Below are positions 4,749-62,299 of a stretch of DNA of 64,000 bases, in pieces. This DNA comes from Vicugna vicugna. Its lineage: Eukaryota. Location: NCBI GenBank assembly GCA_013265495.1, contig MU057744.1, positions 558,001-622,000 on the forward strand. Direction: 5' to 3'. The stretch's first letter is position 1; every line of letters starts with the position of its first letter. The position numbers and the translations under genes are program-made. The notes under the pieces are model-generated. The model saw only the letters and a program-made list of their open reading frames with translations, was not told the origin of the DNA and searched no databases.

Positions 4749-4880
4749 GGGGAGGATATAGCTCAGAGGCAGAGCGTGTGCTTAGCATGCACGAGGTCCT
4801 GGGTTCAATCCCCAGCACCTCCGACAGACGAATGAATAAATAAACAAGCTTAACTATCCCCCACCAAAAAGACAAAACAA
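4749..4880 (+). mobile_element. tRNA-Ala-like SINE (Vic-1-like)
   Basis: GGGGAGGATATAGCTCAG (A box)...GGTTCAATCCCC (B box), A-rich tail, TSD AAATGGTTCAA(C/T)TTCA at 4733-4748 and 4881-4896. Confidence 0.88.
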
Positions 4881-12641: not shown

Positions 12642-12858
12642 GGGAATTTGAAATTTGTAGATACTGACAGTCACATGCAGAATAGATAAACAAGATTATA
12701 CTGTAGAGCACAGGGAAATATATACAAGATCTTGCGGTAGCTCACAGTGAAAAAGATGTGACAATGAATATATGTGTGTTCATGTATAACAAAAATTGTG
12801 CTCCACACTGGAATTTGACACAACATTGTAAACTGACTATAACTCAATTAAAAAAAAA
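12642..12858 (+). mobile_element. Lineage L1 3' end (5'-truncated)
   Basis: GACACAACATTGTAAACTGACTATAACTCAATTAAAA terminus; imperfect TSD AAAATCA....AGAGTT. Confidence 0.75.
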
Positions 12859-13885
12859 TCAAGTTAGAGTTAGAGATGGTAACTGCTTTGAGTCGATTAG
12901 CAGAGCAGCACACAGGGGCACTGAGTAAGCACAATTTATTCAAAACAGCACAGCAACAAACCACTTCCAGGAGCAGCCTGCAGCACTCCTCCTAAGCTCT
13001 GCCAGCATCACGCCCTGCACTGTAATCAAGGCTAAACGTCTGGAGGAGGTACAATACTTTGCACTTCTTTGTATTTCTCATATGCCTAGCACCCAGATCC
13101 TAAATAAAACAGGTGTCCAATAAAAATTAAACTGAGATAAGTACAAGGAGTCCTCCCAGAGAGCCTCCTTGGCCCACAGAATTACCAAGGTTATGATTCG
13201 TCTTCTCTGCAGAAATGTATTAAACATTTAATGCTTTAATGCGCAGTAAGATGATGCTTCTGGAGATTTGTGTCTTAACAATATGCCAGTAAGAATGCTA
13301 TGCTGTACATCATAAATGCAGACACTAAAGGCACAAAATTCAAATAAAAATATTAATCTACTAACATATTTTATAAAGCTGTTAATCAATTTGGAGGGCA
13401 GTCTTTGCTGACGTACTTTGGTCATTAGAAATTAATTTATGGCAACAGGACACGTGTGCTGAACGTGGGCAGCACCATGACTTCAGAGCACAGGCCTCTG
13501 TGGCGAGGCAGACTCAGTCTCCAGGTCTCTGCCAGCTGCATGATCACCAGCAAGCTGCTGGGTCTCTCTCACCCTCAGTCTCCTGCTCCTGATGGAGGGG
13601 GTCATTTTTGTAAGACTACAGTGGGAGCCTGGTAAATACATTTCAGCTTGTCTTTAGGTCCTAAATACCTAAAAGTACGTCATATAAACACCTTTTTGAA
13701 AAACCTTATTGAAAACAGTAGAAAACAGGCCCCCCTCATTCAATTTAATTTAATTCTATCAGTTTTGGAGGAAAGAAATTCTCTGAGTTTTCTGACACGT
13801 TAGACGCTTTCATGTAACCTGCTCAAGTTTTCCCCTTTCCAAAGTTTTCATCAGAAGCAGTTTTCAATAATGATGAAAAACTTAC

Positions 13886-14116: not shown

Positions 14117-15007
14117 CTATAATAAGTAACACACAGTGAAAAACCACATTAGGAACAGTTAACCATGAAATAAAGAAAACTGATTGCAATATGGGCCGTT
14201 TGGCTGACCTGATTTTGAAGCTATGAAACATAAGTTAGGGTAGCAAGGATCCTTAACCTTTTTTTTAGCTCACAGACCCTTCCAATAACAAGATTAAAGA
14301 TGTTGCTAAAACTGTCCCAAGGTGAATATGCCAATATTCAAATGAAACATGCATATAATTTCGTGGTTTTAATTGACTCACTTTAATTTGTCCACGAACC
14401 CCTTAGGTGCCCAAAGAACTCCTGCTTCAGGGGTCTACATGACAGGTGCAGACAAAAACAAATCATTCAAGTGTTTGATACCTCATTTCCCTCATCTGTC
14501 ACTATGTGTGCTGATAAGTGCTCTACCTTCTTCTCGAGGCTGTTGTGAGAATCACATGAGATAACACAGAGCTGCTTTGAAAGAGGCAACAGCTGTACGT
14601 GGATGAAAAGTGTCACTGCTGCAGGTAACAAGTCAACTGATCACGGTCGGAGCTGACCACTTACAAATAAGCAGGAGACACTTAATAATAATAAAAAGAC
14701 ACACATTCCCCTCCATCATAGACAGAAATAATAGTTTAACTTTTCTGCCTAACTTTTGGTTTGGGAGAAAACTATTCTTTATTTTCTGTACGTATTGGCT
14801 AATCCCTCAGCATTACACCAGGGTCAAAGCTCAGTCACCAGTGCGCCAGAAACCCAGGGGAGGCATGGGTTCTTCTCCCGCAACCTGAGGCTCTGATCAG
14901 AGTGAGGAGCTTCCCTGGGGGCCACTCATGGAATCTGCTGCTGAGCATACAGGGGCCACCTTTCTTTTCAGTTAACCTTCTCAGGTTAGCACTATATGCC
15001 AGATCTT

Positions 15008-15272
15008 TTTTTTTAATTAAATTAAATTTTTTTAATTGAAGTATAGTCAGTTTACAATGTTGTGTCAATTTCTGGTGCACAGCATCATGTTTCAGTCATA
15101 CATATACATACATACACTTCCATATTCTTTTTCAGTATAGGTTTCTACAAGGTATTGAGTATAGTTCCCTGTGCTGTCCAGTAGGACCTTGTTGTTTATC
15201 TATTTTAAATAGAGTAGTTCATATCTGCAAATCCCGAACTCCCAGTTTACCCCTTCCCACCCCTTTCTCCCC
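15008..15272 (-). mobile_element. Lineage L1 3' end (5'-truncated)
   Basis: Same family in reverse; TSD ATATGCCA(G/A)ATCTT at 14994-15007 and 15273-15286. Confidence 0.8.
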
Positions 15273-16815: not shown

Positions 16816-17271
16816 TGCAAGGGATTAAACAATACCCTACATCAAGACAAACTAGAAAATGAGAATCTTTAAAAGGCCATTTCAGTATTATGTCATTTTC
16901 TAATGAAAACTATTCATATTAAACATTTATTCATTCAACAATATACTTAGGACCTTTTATATATTAGACACAAGATTCTTACTCTCAGAGTTTATATTTC
17001 AGTGTGGGAGATTAAAATAACAAGTACACAAATAATTTAAGAGATAATTACAAGACTTGGCTAGGATGCTACTACAGAATAAACGAGGAGCAGGGCCAGA
17101 AGGAAGCCGTTCTGCGAGGTGGTCAGGGAAAGCCTCTTTGAGAAGGTGACACCGGGGCTGAAACCTGAAGTAAATGTCTAAGATTTGATGACACTACACT
17201 GCAGGAGAGGATCCTAATGAACTATGTGTTCCTTGTAATCAGTAGATGCAAAAAACACATTGACATGAGTT

Positions 17272-17404
17272 GGGGGGTAGGTATAGCTCAGTGGTAGAGC
17301 ACATGCTTAGCATGCACGAGGTCCTGGGCTCAATCCCCAGTCCCTCCATTAGATAAATAATAATAAAAAATTAAGTATATGGTTCAGTAATTTAAAAAAA
17401 AAAA
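17272..17404 (+). mobile_element. tRNA-Ala-like SINE (Vic-1-like)
   Basis: GTATAGCTCAGTGGTAGAGCACATGCTTAGCATGCACGAGGTCCTGGGCTCAATCCCC plus A-rich tail. Confidence 0.87.
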
Positions 17405-17615
17405 GAATACGTTGTTCTGAATCAATATATGGAGGAGAGCTGAATTGGATGATACTCCACATAAAAACATGAGTAAAAGGTAACAAACTGTATCAGTTCA
17501 TTAGGGTTAAGAATAAAAAAGCTTTAGGTCTATTTTAAAATGTATACCCAAATTTTAAGTTACACATATATTTATTTTTCCAAATTAAAACAGCATATTC
17601 AGGAGCTGCCCTTAC

Positions 17616-17793
17616 TTTAATAACTCCTCGCTGTATGGCAGGTGACGGGTGGTTAACGAGGACTAAGAGCGCGTCTGCTTGAATGAGCTTGTCCATCACG
17701 TCTTCCAGCATGGCGTCAGGCAGGATGAGAAGGACCCCGCTCAAGAGTTCGTACAGCCCACAGCATATGGGGACCAGGCAGTCTTCAGTCACA
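17616..17793 (-). CDS. LYST: LYST exon 24 (178 nt)
   Basis: ttccag|T...[28 protein letters not shown]...[12 protein letters not shown]. Confidence 0.95.
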
Positions 17794-18429
17794 CTGGAAC
17801 AGAGACCCCAAGAGCCTGACTGACACAGTGCCGGGGAGGGAAGCAGCGCACCGCAACCCCGAGAGCCACGACGAGCGGCAGTAATTTTAACACGTGAAAC
17901 AGAAGTCTGTAAGGTTTAAAGAGATGCTTCCTGACTTAGCTGTGATTAACAAGGCTGCCACCACTTTCTACCACCGGTCCTTTTTAGGTAAGCAGTAGTC
18001 TGTCCTACCTCTGTGATTTCCACGAGCCACGAGTGTTATTTAACTAAAGCTAAATAAAAATGCAGCTGCCCAGCTGCACATTTAGGCGCATGTGCCGACC
18101 CCAGGGGACGGCACAGGCGAGCATTCCCATCACTGCAGAGTCTCACTGACCGTGCTGGTGGAGATGCTTTTGGAAGGAATAAAAAATCGTATAATTTTCC
18201 TAAACTGAAGAGTCTGTCTCTAATAACCATATGGAATTAAACGAACCACAGATGTTTTTTCCTTCAAGAACTATTTATGGTTTAGCCTTTGGTTAAAAGT
18301 GGAATTCAGCATCACTCAGTATTAAAATGAGGAGGGAGGGACCTCTGTTACCAACACACATGCTGTATTTAAGAGGTCATGCGATAAAGCCGCTTCTACA
18401 AGCACGGAGGTTCTCCCCAGCGCAGTAAA

Positions 18430-19190
18430 GGGCAGTAGGGGGGGGAGCTGCGCATAAGAACACGTGAGCACCTGTGAGCGCCTGCGGCCCGGCGGCCCAG
18501 CGGCTCGCAGCGGAGAGGAAAGGCAAAGTTGTCCCAGTCCTCGGCGCTCCTGTCGGCCAGGCTGGGCCAGCGGCCCAGGGCGGCAGCTCCGTGCTGTGAC
18601 GGGAAGGCCAGCCCGAGGCTTGCGACGGTGCTGTGGCTGCGCTGGAACGAGGCCAGCCCCCTCAGGTGATCGGGCCGGCGCGGGCAGGGCTCGTCCCCGG
18701 GACCGGCGTCCTCGGATCCGGGCTCCGCCGCCGTTCCCGGGACGCCGGGGACAGGGGCCTGGGCTGGCAGGGCGGCCTCCGCCTCGCAGACCGTTTTCGC
18801 GGACTCGCAGCTGCTGAGGAAGGCATCTTCCCCGGCTCTCCTCAGCGTCTCGGAGCTCCCCGGCGGACTCTGCTTCTCTGGCCGGGAAGCCACGTAACTG
18901 TCCACGACCCTCTGCAACCCGTCGATGCTGCCCCCCACACTTCCGGGCGGCTTCCGTGGCCAAGTCCGAGGCGAGGAGGTCGGGAAGGCCGGCAGGCTTC
19001 GGGAACGCGGCATGCGGGCAGCCGCCTGCTGCGGGAGAGCCCTGCCGGAGCCGCTTCCTGGCGGGAGCAGACAGGGAAAGGCACTTAGGCGTCCGCCCGG
19101 TGGGGCCCCTTCTGCACACTCGGTCACCGCGGCAGCGAGAACCCCCCCGCGTCGTGACGGGGAAGAATCCCGACAGGTTAGCGTTCCCGG
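18430..19190. promoter_or_regulatory. Intragenic CpG-island-like segment covering exon 23
   Basis: Hand-counted 60-nt lines are about 67-83% GC with dense CpG; abrupt return to AT-rich sequence near 19195. Confidence 0.8.
18472..19057 (-). CDS. LYST: LYST exon 23 (586 nt), extremely GC/CpG-rich
   Basis: cccgccag|GA...AG|GTGCTC; (G)[28 protein letters not shown]...[16 protein letters not shown]...[22 protein letters not shown]...AGAH(S). Phase 1 to 2 fits both neighbours. Confidence 0.92.
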
Positions 19191-19409
19191 TAACTAGTGC
19201 TTAACATTCTTAAGAGTTAAAGCTATTTTTCTTTCAACTACTTGTTATTAAAATCTTCCGAAAATACAGGTCTTCTCCTGTCTCCTTAACAAAATACAGT
19301 ACTGCCTCAATGATTGAAAGCCGTAGGATTAATGGTTCTACCGAAGTGAAATTCAATGAACTGAGTGAAGCGTAGTTCGCCCTGGCGAGCGGTCTCCAGG
19401 CCGCAGGTG

Positions 19410-19625
19410 GACGCGGGGGGAAGAGTGTGCGCTCTGCAACTAGACACCCCTGGCTGCTCAGGTGGCCTCCAGTGAGTCATTTAATTATGTGAGTGCTAGT
19501 CTCTGCAAGTGTAAAAAGGGCGTTCAGAATTTCGACTCTGCAAGGTTGCTCTAAGGATTATGTGAGGTCACACGTGTGATGCAAAGCGCAGACTGCCTGC
19601 CGTAGGACAGGTGCTCAAGGACAGG
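19410..19625 (+). mobile_element. MIR relic
   Basis: Core-like GGTTGCTCTAAGGATTATGTGAGGTCA...TAGGACAGGTGCTCAA. Confidence 0.5.
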
Positions 19626-19699
19626 CAGTAACGGTCGTGCCTGGTGTTGCTATTACTGGACCAAACGGCCCTAGACTGTTCTCTCACTCCTCCAGGTCT

Positions 19700-19835
19700 T
19701 CTTTTTTTTCCCTTCAATTTTTTGGGGGAGGGGTAATTAGGTTTATTTATTTATTTAATGGAGGTACCAGGGATTGAACCCAGGACCTCGTGTATGCTCG
19801 AAAGACTCTACTACTGAGCTGTACGCCCCCCTCCC
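19700..19835 (-). mobile_element. tRNA-Ala-like SINE (Vic-1-like)
   Basis: Reverse tRNA head with T-rich tail; TSD CACTCCTCCA..TCT at 19685 and 19836. Confidence 0.85.
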
Positions 19836-19999
19836 CACTCCTCCAATTCTGCAGTCACTTTTTGCTCTGTTAGTGAGAAGAAAACGTTTTTTCTCTTCTT
19901 GCTGTGGCTCTCCACTTTGCTGCTTCTTATATTCTAAGTAGGAGGAGACAGAAAGTCACTCTCCTCCTCAGTGCATGGGCCATAAGTGACTGCCACTCA

Positions 20000-20178
20000 C
20001 AGTGTCGTCTGCGGGCCGGCCGCGCCCGGGGTCAGGAGCACCTGCGTGACTGCTAGCAATGCACACTCTCAGGCTCCAGATCGACTGAATCAGAACGGAT
20101 GAGGCAGGGCCCAGGGATCTGGTCTAACGAGCCCTCCAGGCAAGTTTTCGGCAGGCTAGAATGTTAGAGGCACTGAGA
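20000..20178. mobile_element. MER5A-like DNA transposon relic
   Basis: ACTGAATCAGAA...GGGCCCAGGGATCTG..TAACGAGCCCTCCAGG motif series. Confidence 0.6.
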
Positions 20179-21637
20179 CGGAGTAAACAAGCACCGAATG
20201 GACTGCTTAGAGCACAGGCTTTGTGATAATAAAGCAGCTCCATAGCTCAGAAGTTTTCCTACTTATTTCGGGACTTCGGCTGGAGGAATAAGGCTGCTGA
20301 AAAGATTCTGTTCAAACGACCGGGAAACAAAGGGGGCATGAATGTGCTTGAAAATGTTTCAGAGTGATGCACGACTATGTTAAAAATAACACTTCCTATT
20401 AAATTCCAAATAAAACTAATTAAACATAGCCTTAAAATATTCAAACAAAAGGCCATAAAATGTGCTAGAGAATAATTGAAACACTTTGGAGATTAATGCC
20501 CAGATATCCTGTCCTTTCTCGCCATCTCTCTATCTTACCAGCACTAGTTCATCATCTGTATCGGAGCTACAGACAAGACTAGGTGGGACTGATAATGAAA
20601 GGAATGTCTCAGTATGGAAGGGGACAGCAGTCAGGAGAGGAAAAGACACACAGTCAGTTCACAACCAGGAGATGTGCACGTGTTTTTTCTCTATAAAGAT
20701 AGAAATGAGGTAGTCTGTTAAGATAAACCAAGAAGAGAGGAACGTACTGTTAGCTTAAAGACTTGAATATACTTGCTACGGAAAAAGGGGGAATTGATTC
20801 TGAACATACAGAAAAATCACAGGGCAGCATTAAAGGGCCAACTACAGTTGCAGACCCTCCTGCGGTTGCAGGAGTTCTCAGCGGTGACTTTCTCGAGCAG
20901 CTTTCAGCAGTGTGAGGAGGGTTAGAGTGAGGAAAGGTTAGGGTTTTTCAGGTCAGGAGTGCATAAAAGGCCAAGGGGACAAGGAAAATGAAGAAGTAAA
21001 ATTATTGGCTAATGGGGACTAGGCTGGAGGGGAAAAAGGAAGGGGGAAATTGGGATGATGACAAAGAAACCAGAGAGACAGGAGGGTGTTGTCAGGGAGG
21101 GGGACACTGGAGGTTCAGAGGTGAGAAGTGTGTTCGGATGCTGTCCAAGGTCAAGGCAAACATACTGGTCAATAAAGTAGAGGGAAAGGTCCCCAGAGTC
21201 AAGGGACATGAGGCAGAGTGTGCGCGGCTGTTCACATGGCAAGTGATGTTGTCTAGAATGACTTCAGGTAGAAAGGAGACAGTGAGCCAAACAAAGCTGT
21301 TGGAGAAAACGGGAAAATAAATCAGAAGCTTACAGAAAGCCACGTGACTATGACCGAAAGGGACAGAGAGTTCCAGAGCAAGAGGGCAGGAGCCTCACCC
21401 GTCTCCTAGGCTCTCCTGAGCCTTTCTTGTGGTTTGGAGTGTGAGTTGCTGGTTCCAGAAAGTAGCGAAACGGATGCCTTCAACATGCTCCATAGTTTTT
21501 AAGTTTAGCCTTCCGTTTACTTAGTCTGAGTGTCAGGCTGACTATGCTGCTAAAACATGAACGATTTATCTATCTATTAACACCCAGAATTAGCTATACT
21601 TTCACTCTTGGGTTTTTATTTTTTAATTTTTTTTTAC

Positions 21638-21769
21638 CTTCGGGTGGTGAAGCAGTAAAAGCAGATGGGCTTATGACCGTCAGTCCAGGGCTGGTAACAG
21701 ACCTTCCTCCACTGCCAGAGCGCCTCTGGCACACAATCGACTGTACTTTCTCCTGAAAGATCTTGCCAT
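21638..21769 (-). CDS. LYST: LYST exon 22 (132 nt)
   Basis: tcctag|AT...G|GTAAAA; (D)[28 protein letters not shown]...ASPPE. Confidence 0.94.
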
Positions 21770-23995
21770 CTAGGATCAAAACGGTTTGAGAGAATTTTTA
21801 AAAAGTATAAAACAAAAATGTAACTTTAAAAGCAAATCATCAAATGCAAATGTTTATGAAAAGAAGTTCAAAGCAGACACACATGGCGCACCTTGTACGC
21901 GAGCGCGCCCTGCGAGTCCTGCCCTAGGCTCTCTGACTGCGCCTGGTCACAGCGACCTCTGCTGCTTTGCAGGCCCTCGGTACCTGCAGTCACTGCTGTG
22001 CTTCAGCAGCCTGACGCTTCACTTTGTATTTGCTAATATGAGCTCTCCGAGGACACTGCTCATCTCTTCACTCCTTGAGGAAAGGGCTGTGTGTTGTTTG
22101 TACAAAGGCCCTTCGATGTCCAATACGACTCCAAAATTGATACCTCCAGCTTAATCGTCCTTTCTGAGCTTCATATGCTTGTAAATTCAACTGCTTGATT
22201 CCTTAAATGCACCACAAATGTGCTAAATCTAAGCCTGAGCCATCCTTCTGCCCTGAATTCACTCCTGTTTTGCTCTCTGGTCCCTTTGGTGGATGCACCC
22301 ATCTCCCATGCAGGAACCAGAAGCCACCCTTGACCACAGCTCTCCTCTATTCATGACTTGTCAGTCTCCGGGTGCTACTGATTGCTGACTTGTGAACGCT
22401 TCTCATCCCCAGAGGAGTGCTATAATGCAGGTACTCTTCACCTGTCACCCGGATTCTTACCAGACTTCTAAGTGGTATCCGTGATGGACATCTGGTCATC
22501 CTCACCTCCTCAGAGCTACCAGAATTCTCTCCACCAAATGTCAGCCCTGGCTAAAAACCTTCCTGTGGCTCTCTGCTGCCTCCGTACCACCCTGGGCAAA
22601 GTCCAAGCTTCTCGTCTAACAGAGTCTCCACGATCTGTCTACACACCCCTTCTCCAGCCTTTTTTCTTACATTACTGCAGCAACATCAAGCTGTTTGCTT
22701 TGCTGGGAAGGCCCTTCCCTTCAACTCCCACTCAACCTTTAAGGCTCAGAGTAGGCGCCATGCCCTCACCATGCTCTGTGGGACCAGAAGACGGAATGCT
22801 GACAGCGCCGTGCCTTCCACGTGGTGTAATGACCTGTCACGTCCCCCTGCCTCTGCTGGACCGTGAGCTCCTCAAGGGAGGGGCCGCATGTTACTTGTCT
22901 TTGCAACCGCCTTGCTGCCAGGATCTTGGTTCACTGAATGTTTGTTGAACCTAACACACCTCACATGCTCATAATCCCACTTGGATTTTTACTGTGGCTG
23001 AATCATCGTATTCACTGATTACATTCCTTAAAATGGCTGCTTCACAACAGTTTCCCGTCTAAACTTGCAGTCTGCTCCCCCCCAGGCGCGCTCTCGCCTG
23101 CTTTCTCACCACGGCCCGCTCTCCTCACCCTCTGAGAACCTGGTCATCCCGCCTGTTCGTCACACCGAGGTCGCTCTTTCTCGTTCCCCCCTCTGCACAG
23201 CATTGCTGCCAGCAGTTCTGTCCTTAGCTTCCCTTTTCCTTCTGTCTCAGCGCTTTTCTTCAGTGGTCTCTTCTGTTCCCAGAGCTGCAACTCACTTCTA
23301 TGCAGGTCGTTTCTCTATACTGAATGTTACTGTAATAATTTACTTACAGCATGTTCCTTGGCTCAAAACAAACACAACAAAGCAAAATCCTTCAATTACC
23401 CCTAACTAGAATACAAGTTCAAACTCCCTGACCTTATAGTCAAGGACTCATTTAATATGACCTTGAGGGGGAAGTAATTGAATGTCCCAAACTATATTTA
23501 TGGTATTATTTCTCACTACTCCTTCATAAATCCCCTATACTTAGTTCATTATTCTTTATTTTCTTTTCCTATTTTTCCTCCTGTTTAAGTCATTCTCTTC
23601 ACCTGGAATGCTAATTCTCCAATCTACCCATGGAATTTTACCTAAAGTCTTCAATGCCCATGCCAGATACATAATCTATGAGGTCTCTCTCCACAGCTGT
23701 CTGATGAAGCCCTCACTCCTCTGACATCTGAGTACTTCTCCTTTTGCATGTACTGGGTACTTACCAGAAATCATTTCTTACTATAATCATTTGAGTGTAC
23801 ATCTCCCCTCACCTCTTGGCATTTAAGCTCATGTCTGGCTCATTTTAGCTCTCCGCTTTGGTCCCAATTCCACTGTGTAATTAGGGCAATTTCTAGCACA
23901 GAGACCATTTGATAAATACCCAACAAATGGAGATCAATTGGGAAAAGAAAAACAAAAGTGGAAAAGCCAAGATCTGCAAAGATGATTATACCTAC

Positions 23996-24194
23996 CTATG
24001 TGCAAAGAAAAGTAGAAGTTTGTGGGGTTGTGACAAACGTAAGTATTAGTAGGAGGGTGGACTGCTAAAAGGAAATTGAAGATAATTGTCAATAATTCCA
24101 AATCTGGAGGAGATCCAAGGACTTCTGCTATAATTTTCACAAATGATCTACAAACCTCGCGGGGCAAGGATGTGAGCTGCCCCTCTTTGTGTTC
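23996..24194 (-). CDS. LYST: LYST exon 21 (199 nt)
   Basis: tttcag|GAA...[37 protein letters not shown]...FYFSLHI. Confidence 0.95.
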
Positions 24195-27100
24195 CTGAAA
24201 AAATAAAAACTCTCTTTAGATTTAAAGAGAACTGTCAACTTAACATTTTTCATTTAAGCAAGATATTCCTCTTAAGATAGAAGTGTGTTGGCTTATCACT
24301 CTGGTCGGACCATATTCACAACACTGAGCTGCTATTTCTCAGTTCAGGCAATCCTGCTATAAAAATGCACGAACACCAGTGGCCCCACGTAAATGTCAGC
24401 TGCAATTAGCACCAGTACCACCGCTGGCACCGCTTCTGCTCCTACTGTGGGTTCAGGAGGGTCAAGTTCTGACGGAGTGCTGATCACGTTAACACAGTAC
24501 GTTCCACTTTACCAAGAGCTTTCTCACAACAGCTCTGAGAGGTTTTACCCTTCATTTCTAGAATATGAAGACCAGAAGTGGTTATATGACTAACTTGCTA
24601 AACCACACAGAAAACATGTCAGTTGTGCGTCTGAAACTCAAACCCAGACCTCTTGACTGCCTGGACCAGTGAGACCTGGTAGAATGCCAAGGAATTCCTG
24701 AAAATGAAGGCGGATATAAATACATTATTTATATTCTCCAATCCCACCTCCCCAGCGGGCAGCAGCCGGCCTCTAGAGCAAGGCCGTGGGGCGTAAACTT
24801 CCTTGTCTTTCCTCTCTCTGTCCAAACAGACACTGTGTCTCCACACCCAATCTTCTTCATTTACTCTTGTGCATCGCTGAATCAGAAAACGTAAAACCTA
24901 GACGATAACTGTGAAACACTTTAGTCTAACTACCTCGGATTTAAGAAGAGAACACCCAGTCTACAAAAGTAAGCAAAAACTCCCTCGTCAAGACCTCACA
25001 ACTGCCACGGGGCCGAGCCAGGCCAAGAGCACAGGGTTCCCAACTTCCGGGTCTTTGTCATCCCTGCTACAACCACCTGCCTCTTTTCTAAATCATCCCC
25101 GGGGTAACTTCCCAACTCTCCTGATTGTCACCTCAATGACTCACTCCTCACCCATCCCAGCCTGATCCACTGACTCCTTACAAATAGTCGATGGCAATCT
25201 ATTTCATTTCTTTAAAAAATCCTTTAACTTGGCCTGTTGGGAAATGCTTGCTAACACTTTTTGTCTTTCTCTTGCTGCTGGACTTTTTAATAATCATTTA
25301 TTCTCACTGCCTCCAATGATCTGCCACACATGCTGCCTAAAGTCCCCAGAAATCTGGTTCCTGCCTTCTTCACTCTACTGAAATTTCATCCGCCACTAAG
25401 AATTTCCAAGTTGGTGGCCCTTCACCTGTCCGCACTTTCCTGGAACTTTGTACATCATGCGGCCCTCACTCCTCCGCCTGGGCAGTTCTCTCCCCTCTGC
25501 CCACCCCTGGCTTTCACTTTGCTGAGCTTCCTGGTTCTTCTTCATCTCTTCAACCACCCACTTTTTTGGGGGTGGGGGGTGGAAATTCTTTCTACACCTC
25601 TCTCAATAGCTCCTTTTTCCGGTTTCACACCCTGAAAACGGCTGTCTCCTGCGATGCAAACCTCAGCTCTCTCTGCTCCTTCCGCTGCATGTGTTTATCC
25701 TGGAGTGCTTACCTACCCCCGTGGCTCCCCTGTTCATCAGTGCTAACAATGTCTGATCTCACTCTCGTCCGTCCCCTCAGCTCCCGCCTGGCACATCGCA
25801 GTGGCCTGGCGGTCACCGCCCCTGAACGCCCACGGAAACCTCAAGTGCAGAATGTTCCGTTCACGCTCACTCCTCCTCTCTGTGATGACGTGATCATTCT
25901 CCTAGTCTCCCAGCTCAAAATGTCCCCTATCTGACTTCTCTTGTGGCTCCTATCTGAACAGAATCTGGCCCTACTAACCCTACTAACCTTCACAGTCTTC
26001 CTCCTTTCTGTACACGCCCACTTTACAGGCTCTCGAAGCTCAGGTCTTTACGCTGTACTAGTGGAGAGATGAACCTGGCCCACGCCTAATTTTCTACTGA
26101 TTTCTTAATCTTCCTTAAATACTCTGAGATATCTGAAAGGCAACGACTAAGTTCATTTCTTTACATACTTCCCTCGATACCTAACATAAAGTTATCCTTA
26201 ATAAATAGCTGTTAATTCAAAAAATAGGCTCTCTGAATGCAGAAGGGTGAAGAAATACACCTTTCACGAAAAGGAATTGATACCTGGATTTTTCTAGCAT
26301 TTTAATTAATAATATGGAAGTGAAAAATATACTGAAAGCTCCAAGTTGATAAGTGCCACTTTTCTGACATGGAAAGAGTGAATAAGAACTTCACACTGTC
26401 ATATGAATTCATTAAAACTGGCCAACAAGTTTCAAAGTGGACAGACAAGGAGAAAGAAACTGAGTGATACATAAAACACTCGGTGAGCAAGGGGTCTGCG
26501 AGGTCACTGTACTGTATCCCTGAAGACAGCACTCTAATTTCCCACAGGGGCCAAGAAGGGTATGACGTATTTTTGTTTTGTTACTTCAGAATTCATTCAT
26601 TCCACAAGCGCTGACTGCAGGCCTCTGTGTTCCAGGTACTGGGACTACTGTGTGGTCAACAGAAAACCTCACTCATGCCCTCAGGAAGTCTGCAGGGGAA
26701 ATGAGCCATCAACTCATGAATGACGTAAAACTAACAAAACGTGCACGTGCAGAGGGAGACAGCGTGTGCTCTGGGGAAAGGGCGCGGAAGTCAGGTTTAC
26801 GCTCGGCATAACGCAGGAGCAGGAGCTGGCCAGGTCAGAAAGACCGTCACCTGTCCTGCCTGTCCTGCGCTGGGAAGCAGGCTCCCTTGTTTAGGGAAGA
26901 GAAGTAAGGCGGGGGCTGCGTGGCTGCAGGTGGGGCTGAAGTGCAGCCGATCACACAAGCCTTCTCACAGAAGTTGTAGGTTTTTAATTTTACCCCAAGA
27001 ACAGTGAGAAGGCACCAGCGCAACGGGAACAAAGGGATGTCAAATGAAGGCAACGCTACTGATCCCACGGGGCCTCTGGACTCCTCCGAGCGGATAAAGA

Positions 27101-44701: not shown

Positions 44702-44796
44702 GGGGGAGGGTAGAGCTCAGTGGTAGCGCACGTGCTTAGCATGCATGAGGTCCTGGGTTCAATTCCCAGTCCCTCCATTAAAGAAAAAAATAAAAA
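44702..44796 (+). mobile_element. tRNA-Ala-like SINE (Vic-1-like)
   Basis: AGCTCAGTGGTAG...CTTAGCATG...GGTTCAATTCCC plus A tail. Confidence 0.86.
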
Positions 44797-59858: not shown

Positions 59859-60879
59859 CTGATGAGCTGGCTCCAGCTCCATCTTCTGCTGACTAGCTCT
59901 GGTGCCGTGGAGACAAATGGCCAGAAGAGCCTCCAAAAGTCGAATGCTCTGAAGCGAGGGCCCACTTTCTCCAGGCGTAAATACCTTTGCTTCCTCGGGA
60001 GCAGCCTCGGCAGCTGAAGTCTGCCCCACGTTTACGGAGGACAGGTGCTGTGACTCCAGCTCACCTGAACCACCAGCGCTCGTTTTCAGGCCGCCCAGTT
60101 CTGACGGAGCCAGGTGACCTCTTACAGTTAAACATAACAAATCTTCCTTCCCGGGGACCTCAGATTGAGAAGTTCTGCTTGAATCTTGGTTTTCGCCCAC
60201 ATTTATAGCTCCTTCCTTTTTCCCTTGCTCCTCTGCAGAACCTGTGAATAGTTTCTGGATTATCATAAATATCAGTGTATGGCATACTCGGAAACCACCA
60301 AGCCTGTGAAACTGTTTCTGGAAAACGGGACTCAGCATGTAGATCCACCGACACATGGCCCAGATGTCTGCCGCGCGGTGCATCTGTTCGGGCGAAGGCA
60401 GGACGAGGCTCTGGACAGACAAGCATGGCAGGACGCACTGCAGAGGCTCGCTGGCCGTGCTGTCGTAGCCGGAAGTGTCTTCCGACTCATTGGCTGACTC
60501 TCTCTCACACTCGGCTTCTTTGCTCACACACAAGAACGCCACGCAGAGGAACAGGTTGATCGTGCTGATATGGACATCCTGGGTGACAGACTTCTGTTTC
60601 TTGGGATAAGCGTCCTTGAGGCGGGCATAAAATTTGCTAAGACTCTGAGAATCTGAATAAGCGTGCTGGTCACGCAAAGCAGCTACACTGAAAGATGACG
60701 ACTCCTGTTCAGTGTCCATCCCATCAACAGCTGGAGTTGAAGAGCCTTTCTGCTGTTCCCCTAGGCTGATTATCAGAGTTTCAAACGCTTTTAGCGAGTG
60801 ATTTCGAATACCATCTAAGTAATTTAATTCAATTATTTGATTTACTCCATTACAGTTTAAAAACAAATCTCTTATTACC
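59859..60879 (-). CDS. LYST: LYST exon 6 (1021 nt)
   Basis: Acceptor ctcatag|G, donor CAG|GTAATA; (R)[11 protein letters not shown]...MELEPAHQ; phase 2 to 0. Confidence 0.96.
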
Positions 60880-62299
60880 CTATGAGAGGAAAAAAATACA
60901 AGAAATGTTACATATAGCAAAATCATTTATAAATAGGAACACATACTGCTTCAATATGCCGTCACCACAGACAGTAAACACTGCCTGTTCTAGCTCAGCA
61001 GTCACCTGGCTGCAGTCCCTGGTCAGACAGGACCAGGGTCTCAAGTTGCTTCCTCATTAGTTTCACGTCCCGCTTCAGACACTGCAGACACGACTTCAGC
61101 AGCATTTGAAAACAACACATTACATGCTTCTCAAGTTAAAAGAAGCAGATCAGGGAAGAATACTCTCCTCCAAACGGCAACTTTCTCTATAGAAATTCTC
61201 AAAGCCACAGCCACCACCAAACTTGAGATGGACACTCTGAAAGCAGGCAGGCATTTGTGTGTCCATCTGTCTGCCTGCCTGATGGTTCACTCAGGACTTT
61301 TCTTTATTTTCAATCTGTACCTCATAAAGGGAAAGAACCAAACCACAGATCTGAAGTTTCTCCAGCTCTATCTCAGGTGAGACTCGTGGGTCTGGATCAC
61401 TGGAATCTGAGTAATAACTTTAATATAAATTAGCTCAGCAAAAACCCAGGTTGTCCAAAAATATGCCAAGGAGTTATTAAACTTTCAAATCAAAGTCAGG
61501 TCTATGTAAACACTGTCACAATGACAGGAACTTTTTAAAAATGATTGTAAAGATAATGATCACAGGTAGGTTATATTTTAAGTTTTTTAAATGGTATTTG
61601 CATTACTTTCAAAGGCCAGACTATCTATCAGAAGCAACTTTATTTATAAAATTATTTTTTAAGTACCAGAGTTGACAATCACAAAATCTGGAAAACTCAT
61701 TGGTGGGATTCTAAGTAATTTTAATTTTCTTCTTTTGCTTACCTGATTTTCCACTTTTTCTACATATATTGCTTAGGTAATAAATGTAAATATGGTATTT
61801 AAAAAATAATAATCTCTTTAATTTCACTGCCATGATAAATAATCATTTTATATATGTGCATATTTTACATAATTGTAAATAAGTGGATATTTTAATTTTG
61901 TATATCTTATTAATAAAATATTATAAACATTTCCCCGTGTCCCAACATCTCTGTAAACACTTTTTAATAGCCAATAATATTTCATCAAGTAAATATAAAA
62001 TAACTAATCTTGCCCCTGCTGTTAAGATACCTGTGTTGTGTCTATTGCTTTCTCAGAAATATATTTAAAATGTTATTTTCCCCCAGAGAAATTAAAATCA
62101 ATGGTATTATCCTCTTCTCTATTACCATCTAGTAAAAAGAAACAAATTAACAGATAAATAAATGGTAAAAAGAATCTGACATGGGATGGGAACATTTTTT
62201 TGGTGTTAAACTAAAATGAAGTCCTAGGATAGAATAAAGGGTAAAGACATTCAAAAGCATGCAATATGAAAAAAAATTTATACACACACGCACACAAAC

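Follow-up and report, generated by a model that had tools for sequence, protein, structure and literature searches.

The window, by which we mean the whole 64-kb stretch of DNA analysed here, carries LYST on its minus strand. With a rhino LYST protein as the tblastn probe, 28 exon segments were found in order across it. The features in and around the GC-rich exon of this gene are as follows.

18430..19190, unstranded: GC-rich, CpG-dense block; GC 0.720, 84 CpG, CpG o/e 0.853; drawn as 18311-19250 by a 200-nt scan
18472..19057, minus strand: LYST mid-gene exon, 586 nt, predicted from the open frame and splice signals; GC 0.732, o/e 0.854
19058..19190, minus strand: GC-rich 3' end of the upstream intron, 133 nt; GC 0.692, 15 CpG, o/e 0.943; polypyrimidine tract and AG acceptor
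18430..18471, minus strand: GC-rich 5' end of the downstream intron, 42 nt; GC 0.643; GT donor at 18471-18470
21636..21779, minus strand: preceding LYST exon (tblastn, rhino LYST P0162 residues 2093-2140); GC 0.52, GC3 0.48
17550..17795, minus strand: following LYST exon (tblastn, rhino LYST P0162 residues 2349-2431); GC 0.47, GC3 0.51

The minus-strand frame is open from 18396 to 19193 and includes the motifs FQRSHST and AAGAH. Read by eye from the sequence, the acceptor is ...ctgctcccgccag followed by GA at 19058/19057, and the donor is CACAG/gtgctc at 18472/18471. The exon starts in phase 1, and its in-frame peptide (18473-19055, minus strand) has 194 aa. This peptide matches LYST of Grus and residues 2117-2295 of a full-length teleost LYST; its identity to the LYSTs of 21 eutherians is 52-63% (residues about 1377-2348, by gene model). 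No Pfam family covers the peptide and no PDB chain matches it. The large LYST exon at the end of the window is 98% identical to that of Camelus dromedarius (681/697 residues, with the differences scattered), 89% identical to that of pig and 88% to that of fin whale. The animal is therefore a camelid, and a protein difference of 2.3% from dromedary suggests a genus other than Camelus. Judged by the matches of its own peptide, the GC-rich exon is the orthologous mid-gene linker exon of LYST, with its neighbours in order on the same strand, an intact reading frame and predicted splice signals. It is the 19th HSP when the large LYST exon is counted as the first. It would be "exon 23" only if the large exon is number 5.

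The block of 761 nt stands out sharply from the window, whose GC is 0.422 and CpG o/e 0.445. In 100-nt windows starting from 18400 to 19100, GC ranges from 0.66 to 0.81; at the upstream-intron edge it drops to 0.41 (window start 19150) and then 0.30 (19200), and at the downstream-intron edge to 0.44 (18300) and then 0.37 (18250). The GC enrichment thus extends beyond the exon, into ~135 nt of the upstream intron and 40-70 nt of the downstream one. The resulting tract of ~0.8-0.9 kb with sharp edges lies within the length of gBGC tracts (about 1-2 kb or less). In the 200-nt CpG-island scan, 20 merged segments of the window passed, and 18311-19250 (940 nt, GC 0.659, o/e 0.864) was the sole one longer than 420 nt. 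At 761 nt, GC 0.720 and o/e 0.853, the block itself exceeds the bounds of the sequence definition of a CpG island (at least 500 nt, GC at least 55%, o/e at least 0.65). When LYST exons are compared as HSPs, this one has GC 0.73 (GC1 0.71, GC2 0.66, GC3 0.82) and o/e 0.84, while the other 27 in the window have GC of 0.34-0.56 and GC3 of 0.28-0.65. These measurements bear out the initial annotation, which had described a sharply bounded, CpG-island-like block of ~760 nt, rich in GC and dense in CpG, covering its "exon 23" and ~130 nt of the upstream intron (133 nt as measured) in a gene whose introns and many of whose exons are AT-rich.

A second copy of the block is present in the same genome, on another contig.

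16920..24956, unstranded: segment with a second copy at G000:C5161:35603-43690; four LYST exons, including the GC-rich one

The two copies of this 8.1-kb segment are 92.4% identical over 8145 alignment columns. Their homology ends abruptly at both ends, inside the 187.5-kb contig C5161; these abrupt ends, together with a substitution divergence of 5.8%, led us to reject the copy as a haplotig or a contaminant. In the copy, the exon measures 572 nt and is frameshifted; it contains indels of 16, 1, 1 and 2 nt, and six indel events separate the copies within the 761-nt block. In the 2.03-Gb genome, the block matches only itself and this one paralogue. Its tandem repeats amount to no more than three arrays with 2-2.6 copies each, and it has no Rfam match. 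On these grounds, an origin of the block as a repeat or an insertion was rejected.

GC-rich stretches are often badly assembled, and the block might in principle be an artefact of assembly or contamination instead of real sequence of the animal. We found nothing specific that points to this, and we give it next to no probability. The frame is open, the splice signals are intact and the peptide aligns colinearly with orthologous LYSTs, and a diverged second copy of the block, together with its AT-rich flanks, is present on another contig. Moreover, 14 run rows from seven studies, under three organism labels, hold 0.74-0.84 of the words sampled from positions 17400-20000 of the window. RNA runs hold 0.12-0.21 of the words sampled from the same positions, and a sixth run, presumed to be RNA, reaches 0.28; this is no evidence of expression.

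The exon peptide was aligned with 21 eutherian LYSTs, two marsupials, a tortoise, two birds, tuatara, frog and four single-exon fragments; the LYST protein search from the large exon covered proteins of up to 3695 aa. A eutherian consensus was built from the 21 eutherians with one vote per order. Glycine, alanine, arginine and proline make up 46.9% of the exon peptide and 25.5-31.9% in 17 of the 21 eutherians, namely six carnivores, five primates, two perissodactyls, a tenrec and three rodents, referred to below as undrifted. The window differs from the order-level consensus at 61 of 192 aligned residues, and 49 of these replacements are GC-raising, 5 GC-lowering and 7 neutral (binomial p = 3.9e-10 for 49 up vs 5 down). 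Traced along minimal nucleotide paths from the window codons, they amount to 60 W-to-S, 4 S-to-W and 11 other changes. The same direction was observed at conserved positions: at least 16 of the 17 undrifted eutherians agree in 98 columns, and the window differs from them in 19, with 16 GC-raising replacements and none GC-lowering. For this exon, the controls gave GC-raising to GC-lowering ratios of 3:8 in rhino, 10:6 in horse and 4:10 in chimpanzee. Constrained motifs, among them RWPSL and FQRSHST, are intact in the exon peptide, and 13 residues of other eutherians are absent in-frame from the window exon, between ...GVPGT and AAEPGS....

On this protein comparison, 17 of the 21 eutherians retain the ancestral condition, relative to which the GC-rich state is derived. 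The LYST models of fin whale, pig, peccary and dromedary are without this exon. Since no other cetartiodactyl protein in the comparison covers it, the change is placed between the laurasiatherian ancestor and this camelid, and no more narrowly. A metagenome scan for LYST DNA of other mammals returned one contig, with a teleost LYST, which is of no use as an outgroup. At the protein level, the outgroup check agrees with what had been proposed from the sequence alone: the changes favour GC-rich codons, FQRSHST and the other motifs named as fixed have been kept, and most eutherians have the lower G/A/R/P share. The human peptides given in the initial annotation match chimpanzee P0161, with the exception of LLTQSQKL, which reads LLMQSQKL in chimpanzee.

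The GC-ward change is not confined to this exon. We tested 24 further exon segments of the window; the remaining three of the 27 were dropped because their HSPs run into stop codons. In each species test, the species' own order was left out of the consensus. In 2296 residues of these segments, 203 replacements are GC-raising, 56 GC-lowering and 55 neutral (13.7% of residues changed), a replacement rate about twice that of rhino or horse. An exon-only scope of the change, as in the initial annotation, is thus too narrow. The corresponding ratios are 46:53 in rhino (Fisher p = 1.7e-8 for the window against rhino) and 62:64 in horse, and the GC-raising share of raising plus lowering replacements is 0.47-0.58 in primates and 0.60-0.72 in carnivores. 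Strong GC-ward drift was observed in Myotis (231:34), Miniopterus (182:42), Pteropus (202:90) and Perognathus (178:66). These three bats and Perognathus also drift in the GC-rich exon itself, which speaks against the drift being unique to one lineage: the ratio there is 59:11 in Myotis (G/A/R/P 42%), 34:12 in Miniopterus, 28:8 in Pteropus and 37:12 in Perognathus, and of the 19 replacements of the window in conserved columns, 7 are also seen in a bat or in Perognathus. The exon is only modestly more GC-biased than the other segments (odds ratio 2.7, p = 0.038). Its replacements are about 2.3-fold in excess over those elsewhere in the gene, and fox, a species free of drift, has an equal excess; weak constraint by itself thus accounts for some of the pattern.

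The silent and intronic sites of the block are rich in GC as well. GC3 is 0.82 across the exon and also 0.82 at the 135 conserved residues, four-fold sites are G or C at 100 of 122 positions (82%), and the intron margins have GC of 0.69 (upstream) and 0.64 (downstream). These values are compositions, and they stand in for polarised counts of W-to-S versus S-to-W substitutions. They bear directly on the possibility that positive selection remodelled the LYST linker of camelids into a Gly/Ala/Arg/Pro-rich sequence. The extent of the change, 61 of 192 residues including 19 of the 98 positions that are near-invariant in other eutherians, is what such selection could produce. However, the four-fold sites and intron margins shifted alike, the composition is shared by the frameshifted pseudogene copy, and the direction of change is the same throughout the gene and in unrelated lineages. 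Replacements in excess of silent change and independent of it, as positive selection would leave, were thus not found. We thus consider positive selection very improbable. The GC-rich silent sites and intron margins, together with the pseudogene copy, favour a GC-biased process that is blind to coding over selection on the protein.

The second copy gives an age to the GC-rich state. Substitution divergence between the copies is 5.8% overall (461/7980) and 9.0% in the block (67/744), and the GC of the block hardly differs between window (0.720) and copy (0.723). Equal GC in both indicates that the GC-rich state predates the duplication. The mammalian neutral rate is about 1-2.2e-9 per site per year. 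At this rate, 2.9% divergence per lineage corresponds to a time of the order of 13-29 million years. The differences between the copies within the block are symmetric, with S in the window and W in the copy at 24 sites and the reverse at 29, which gives no sign of continuing GC gain or of present hotspot activity. Outside the block, the LYST locus is richer in GC than the copy at differing sites (215 vs 123, p = 6e-7; 156 vs 91 when non-CpG sites are counted). Of the lineage-specific gBGC hotspot suggested in the initial annotation, the derived state, the GC-ward direction and the GC-rich silent sites have thus held; its restriction to the exon has proved too narrow, the same exon has drifted in other lineages as well, and the change is old.

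A coding-blind shift could also come from mutation, for example where a GC-rich stretch that is fragile or prone to breaks is repaired with errors, with no bias in fixation. Several observations are in line with locally raised mutation. At non-CpG sites, the copies diverge by 6.5% in the block (36/550) and by 4.3% in the flanks (293/6836), i.e., 1.5 times more in the block (p = 0.018); six indel events fall within 761 nt; and the window exon has the 13-residue in-frame deletion relative to other eutherians. Against this, the differences between the copies in the block are GC-ward in neither direction (24 vs 29). Known mammalian point-mutation spectra are, besides, AT-biased. We regard local GC-biased mutation as unlikely. 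The short tract and the gene-wide GC-ward replacements fit gBGC episodes as they have been described (PMC12290510).

The CpG dinucleotides of the block have been kept better than those of its surroundings. Of the CpGs in either copy, 67 of 98 are common to both in the block (with 13 found only in the window and 18 only in the copy) and 103 of 200 in the flanks (Fisher p = 0.006). A sequence-intrinsic escape from germline methylation would produce such retention, which lends the CpG-island-like character of the block indirect support, short of proof. CpGs are kept equally in the copy, which lies at another locus, and this argues that the retention is a property of the sequence, probably hypomethylation, rather than of the locus.

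The retention could also be read as the mark of an orphan CpG island, unmethylated in the germline, whose function as an intragenic promoter or enhancer keeps the GC and CpG content or even built it. The length of the block, its GC (0.72) and its o/e (0.85) are those of a CpG island, and its CpGs have outlasted those of the flanks despite the higher non-CpG divergence. Nevertheless, escape from methylation slows the loss of CpGs and is not a source of some 60 W-to-S changes at non-CpG codon positions. A local function also leaves the GC-ward drift in the remainder of the gene unexplained, and the equal retention in a pseudogene copy at another locus makes a locus-specific function unnecessary. 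In our judgement, a functional island as the cause is quite unlikely.

Taken together, the data are best explained by an old episode of GC-biased fixation, which was probably due to gBGC at a recombination-active spot and was superimposed on a weaker gene-wide drift. In this scenario, a weakly constrained linker exon of LYST would have undergone a long run of AT-to-GC fixations in camelid ancestry. The run would have lifted ~0.8-0.9 kb, consisting of the exon and short intron margins, to ~72% GC and to the CpG density of an island. About a third of the residues would thereby have become of G/A/R/P type, while the few strongly constrained motifs held; the effect of gBGC would be most visible where purifying selection is weakest. 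The episode would predate the 8.1-kb duplication, after which the CpG density was apparently kept in both copies. The data show the composition, the direction of the replacements, the richness of silent and intronic sites in GC, an age greater than that of the duplication and the retention of CpGs; gBGC as the fixation bias, a local hotspot and hypomethylation are the elements that we infer.

A more far-reaching version may be considered, in which camelids, bats and a heteromyid rodent each acquired a GC-rich version of the same LYST exon on their own, through a self-reinforcing loop. GC-ward conversion would produce CpG-dense DNA, which would escape methylation and serve as a default open-chromatin break site, and this would in turn attract more conversion. 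A coding exon could in this way run away into a new orphan CpG island, with possible promoter potential, and it would do so repeatedly and predictably at one site in several mammals. We put this forward as speculation with a low probability.

The old gBGC episode, if correctly identified, has consequences for comparative work. Comparative studies and selection scans make use of the sequence of LYST, the Chediak-Higashi gene. Unless gBGC is modelled, such scans would rate this exon of camelids, and likewise that of bats, as fast-evolving or "positively selected". GC-rich exons of this type will probably also tend to be missing from short-read assemblies and from gene models. For teaching and testing, the case is an unusually clean one, as a block of less than 1 kb in an AT-rich gene is dated by an internal pseudogene copy and is accompanied by parallel drift in other orders. 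Whether coding DNA that has newly become CpG-dense acts like a CpG island could also be tested on it.

Literature searches on LYST with biased gene conversion, or with positive selection in camels, returned nothing about this exon. A textbook case for comparison is the Fxy/Mid1 gene of Mus musculus, which moved into the pseudoautosomal region; high recombination there sharply raised the GC of silent, intronic and replacement sites in part of the gene. The boundary in Fxy/Mid1 is explained by a known change of recombination environment, whereas the LYST tract is far shorter and no such change is known for it. Like orphan (intragenic) CpG islands, the LYST block has the sequence characteristics of an island and loses CpGs more slowly than its flanks; it differs from them in being evolutionarily new inside a coding exon and not a conserved regulatory element.

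Extreme GC-rich regions are known from gerbils, where proteins such as PDX1 have diverged aberrantly (Dai, Pracana & Holland 2020, PMC7574485). According to that study, strong local GC-biased substitution made a conserved protein diverge, as in LYST, and this was attributed to biased gene conversion and not to positive selection. The high-GC regions of gerbils, as portrayed there, are scattered and comprise whole genes, while in LYST less than 1 kb is affected within a gene of 42% GC and the motifs remain intact. The closest parallel is with exon-scale gBGC episodes. In the published accounts, these are bursts of AT-to-GC change in one exon of one lineage, in which nonsynonymous AT-to-GC substitutions are raised even at conserved positions, and which confound tests of adaptation. 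The LYST exon is alike in these respects. It differs in reaching ~72% GC, change in a third of its residues and a full CpG-island composition, and also in the gene-wide GC-ward drift beneath it and its recurrence in bats and the pocket mouse. In those accounts, the substitutions are mapped on a DNA tree, whereas the LYST case is built from protein comparison and composition. With these differences, the LYST exon fits as a further case of the known exon-scale gBGC episodes.

The GC-ward bias of amino-acid replacements in camelid LYST spans the gene. Replacements were scored as raising or lowering codon GC relative to an order-level consensus of 21 eutherian LYST proteins. In the 24 exon segments besides exon 23 (window 2298-63999), 203 replacements raised codon GC and 56 lowered it. 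Relative to rhino or horse, the replacement rate was about double, and 13.7% of the residues in these segments had changed. By itself, the second large LYST exon (window 59859-60926) showed 54 replacements towards higher GC and 13 towards lower GC, with 85 of 351 residues changed. About 28 LYST exons lie within the 64 kb. After exclusion of the GC-rich block around exon 23, the CpG observed/expected ratio of the window was 0.427 (GC 0.418), which is higher than the 0.361 (GC 0.401) of positions 1-50000 of C5161, another contig of the same genome.

Exon 23 and LYST overall have also drifted GC-ward in the bats Myotis brandtii (P0230), Miniopterus (P0170) and Pteropus (P0178), and likewise in the pocket mouse Perognathus (P0176). 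Some of their replacements are the ones found in the camelid, for example the K to R change within LKGLASF and the N to S change within VDRN. The observation also takes in the protein fragments P0002-P0004.

Contig C5161 (G000:C5161:35603-43690) carries a second, partial copy of LYST, 8.1 kb long, which corresponds to window 16920-24956. The duplicated piece comprises four exons with their introns and diverges from the window by 5.8%; its copy of exon 23 is frameshifted. The left edge of the duplicate adjoins the sequence ggcaagatggcggagtagaagg, which resembles a LINE-1 5′ start. In exon 23 of the window, 13 residues are missing in-frame at about 18720-18760, between GVPGT and AAEPGS. The alignment showed that they read LGFPAVKVDHKEL in the consensus and are present in other eutherians. 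A 15-residue stretch is still readable in one frame of the pseudogene copy, so that some of the gene's deletion may be younger than the duplication.

A genome search with a 19-kb query that included the first repeat below turned up 14,945 candidates at first look; its scored matches lay almost entirely on the first two features listed here.

Window 12642-12859: ~220-nt repeat ending in an A-rich tail, present in very many genome copies at 91-94% identity.
Window ~15000-15270: second repeat matched in this search.
Window 4752-4823: tRNA-like match to the tRNA model.
Window 17277-17348: tRNA-like match to the tRNA model.
Window 44706-44777: tRNA-like match to the tRNA model.

The three tRNA-model matches are probably the heads of tRNA-derived SINEs.

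GC-rich exons such as exon 23 may be lost from assemblies or gene models. Two LYST models of Camelus dromedarius (P0146 and P0147) end at 1589 and 1702 aa, short of this exon, and the fin whale LYST model (P0149, 3094 aa) gave no match to the exon-23 peptide.

L019, a contig of 2975 nt filed under metagenome, is host DNA and contains teleost LYST exons with 88-93% identity to percomorph LYST proteins. Its homologue of exon 23 has a GC content of 0.52-0.68, and the introns on either side have about 0.35.
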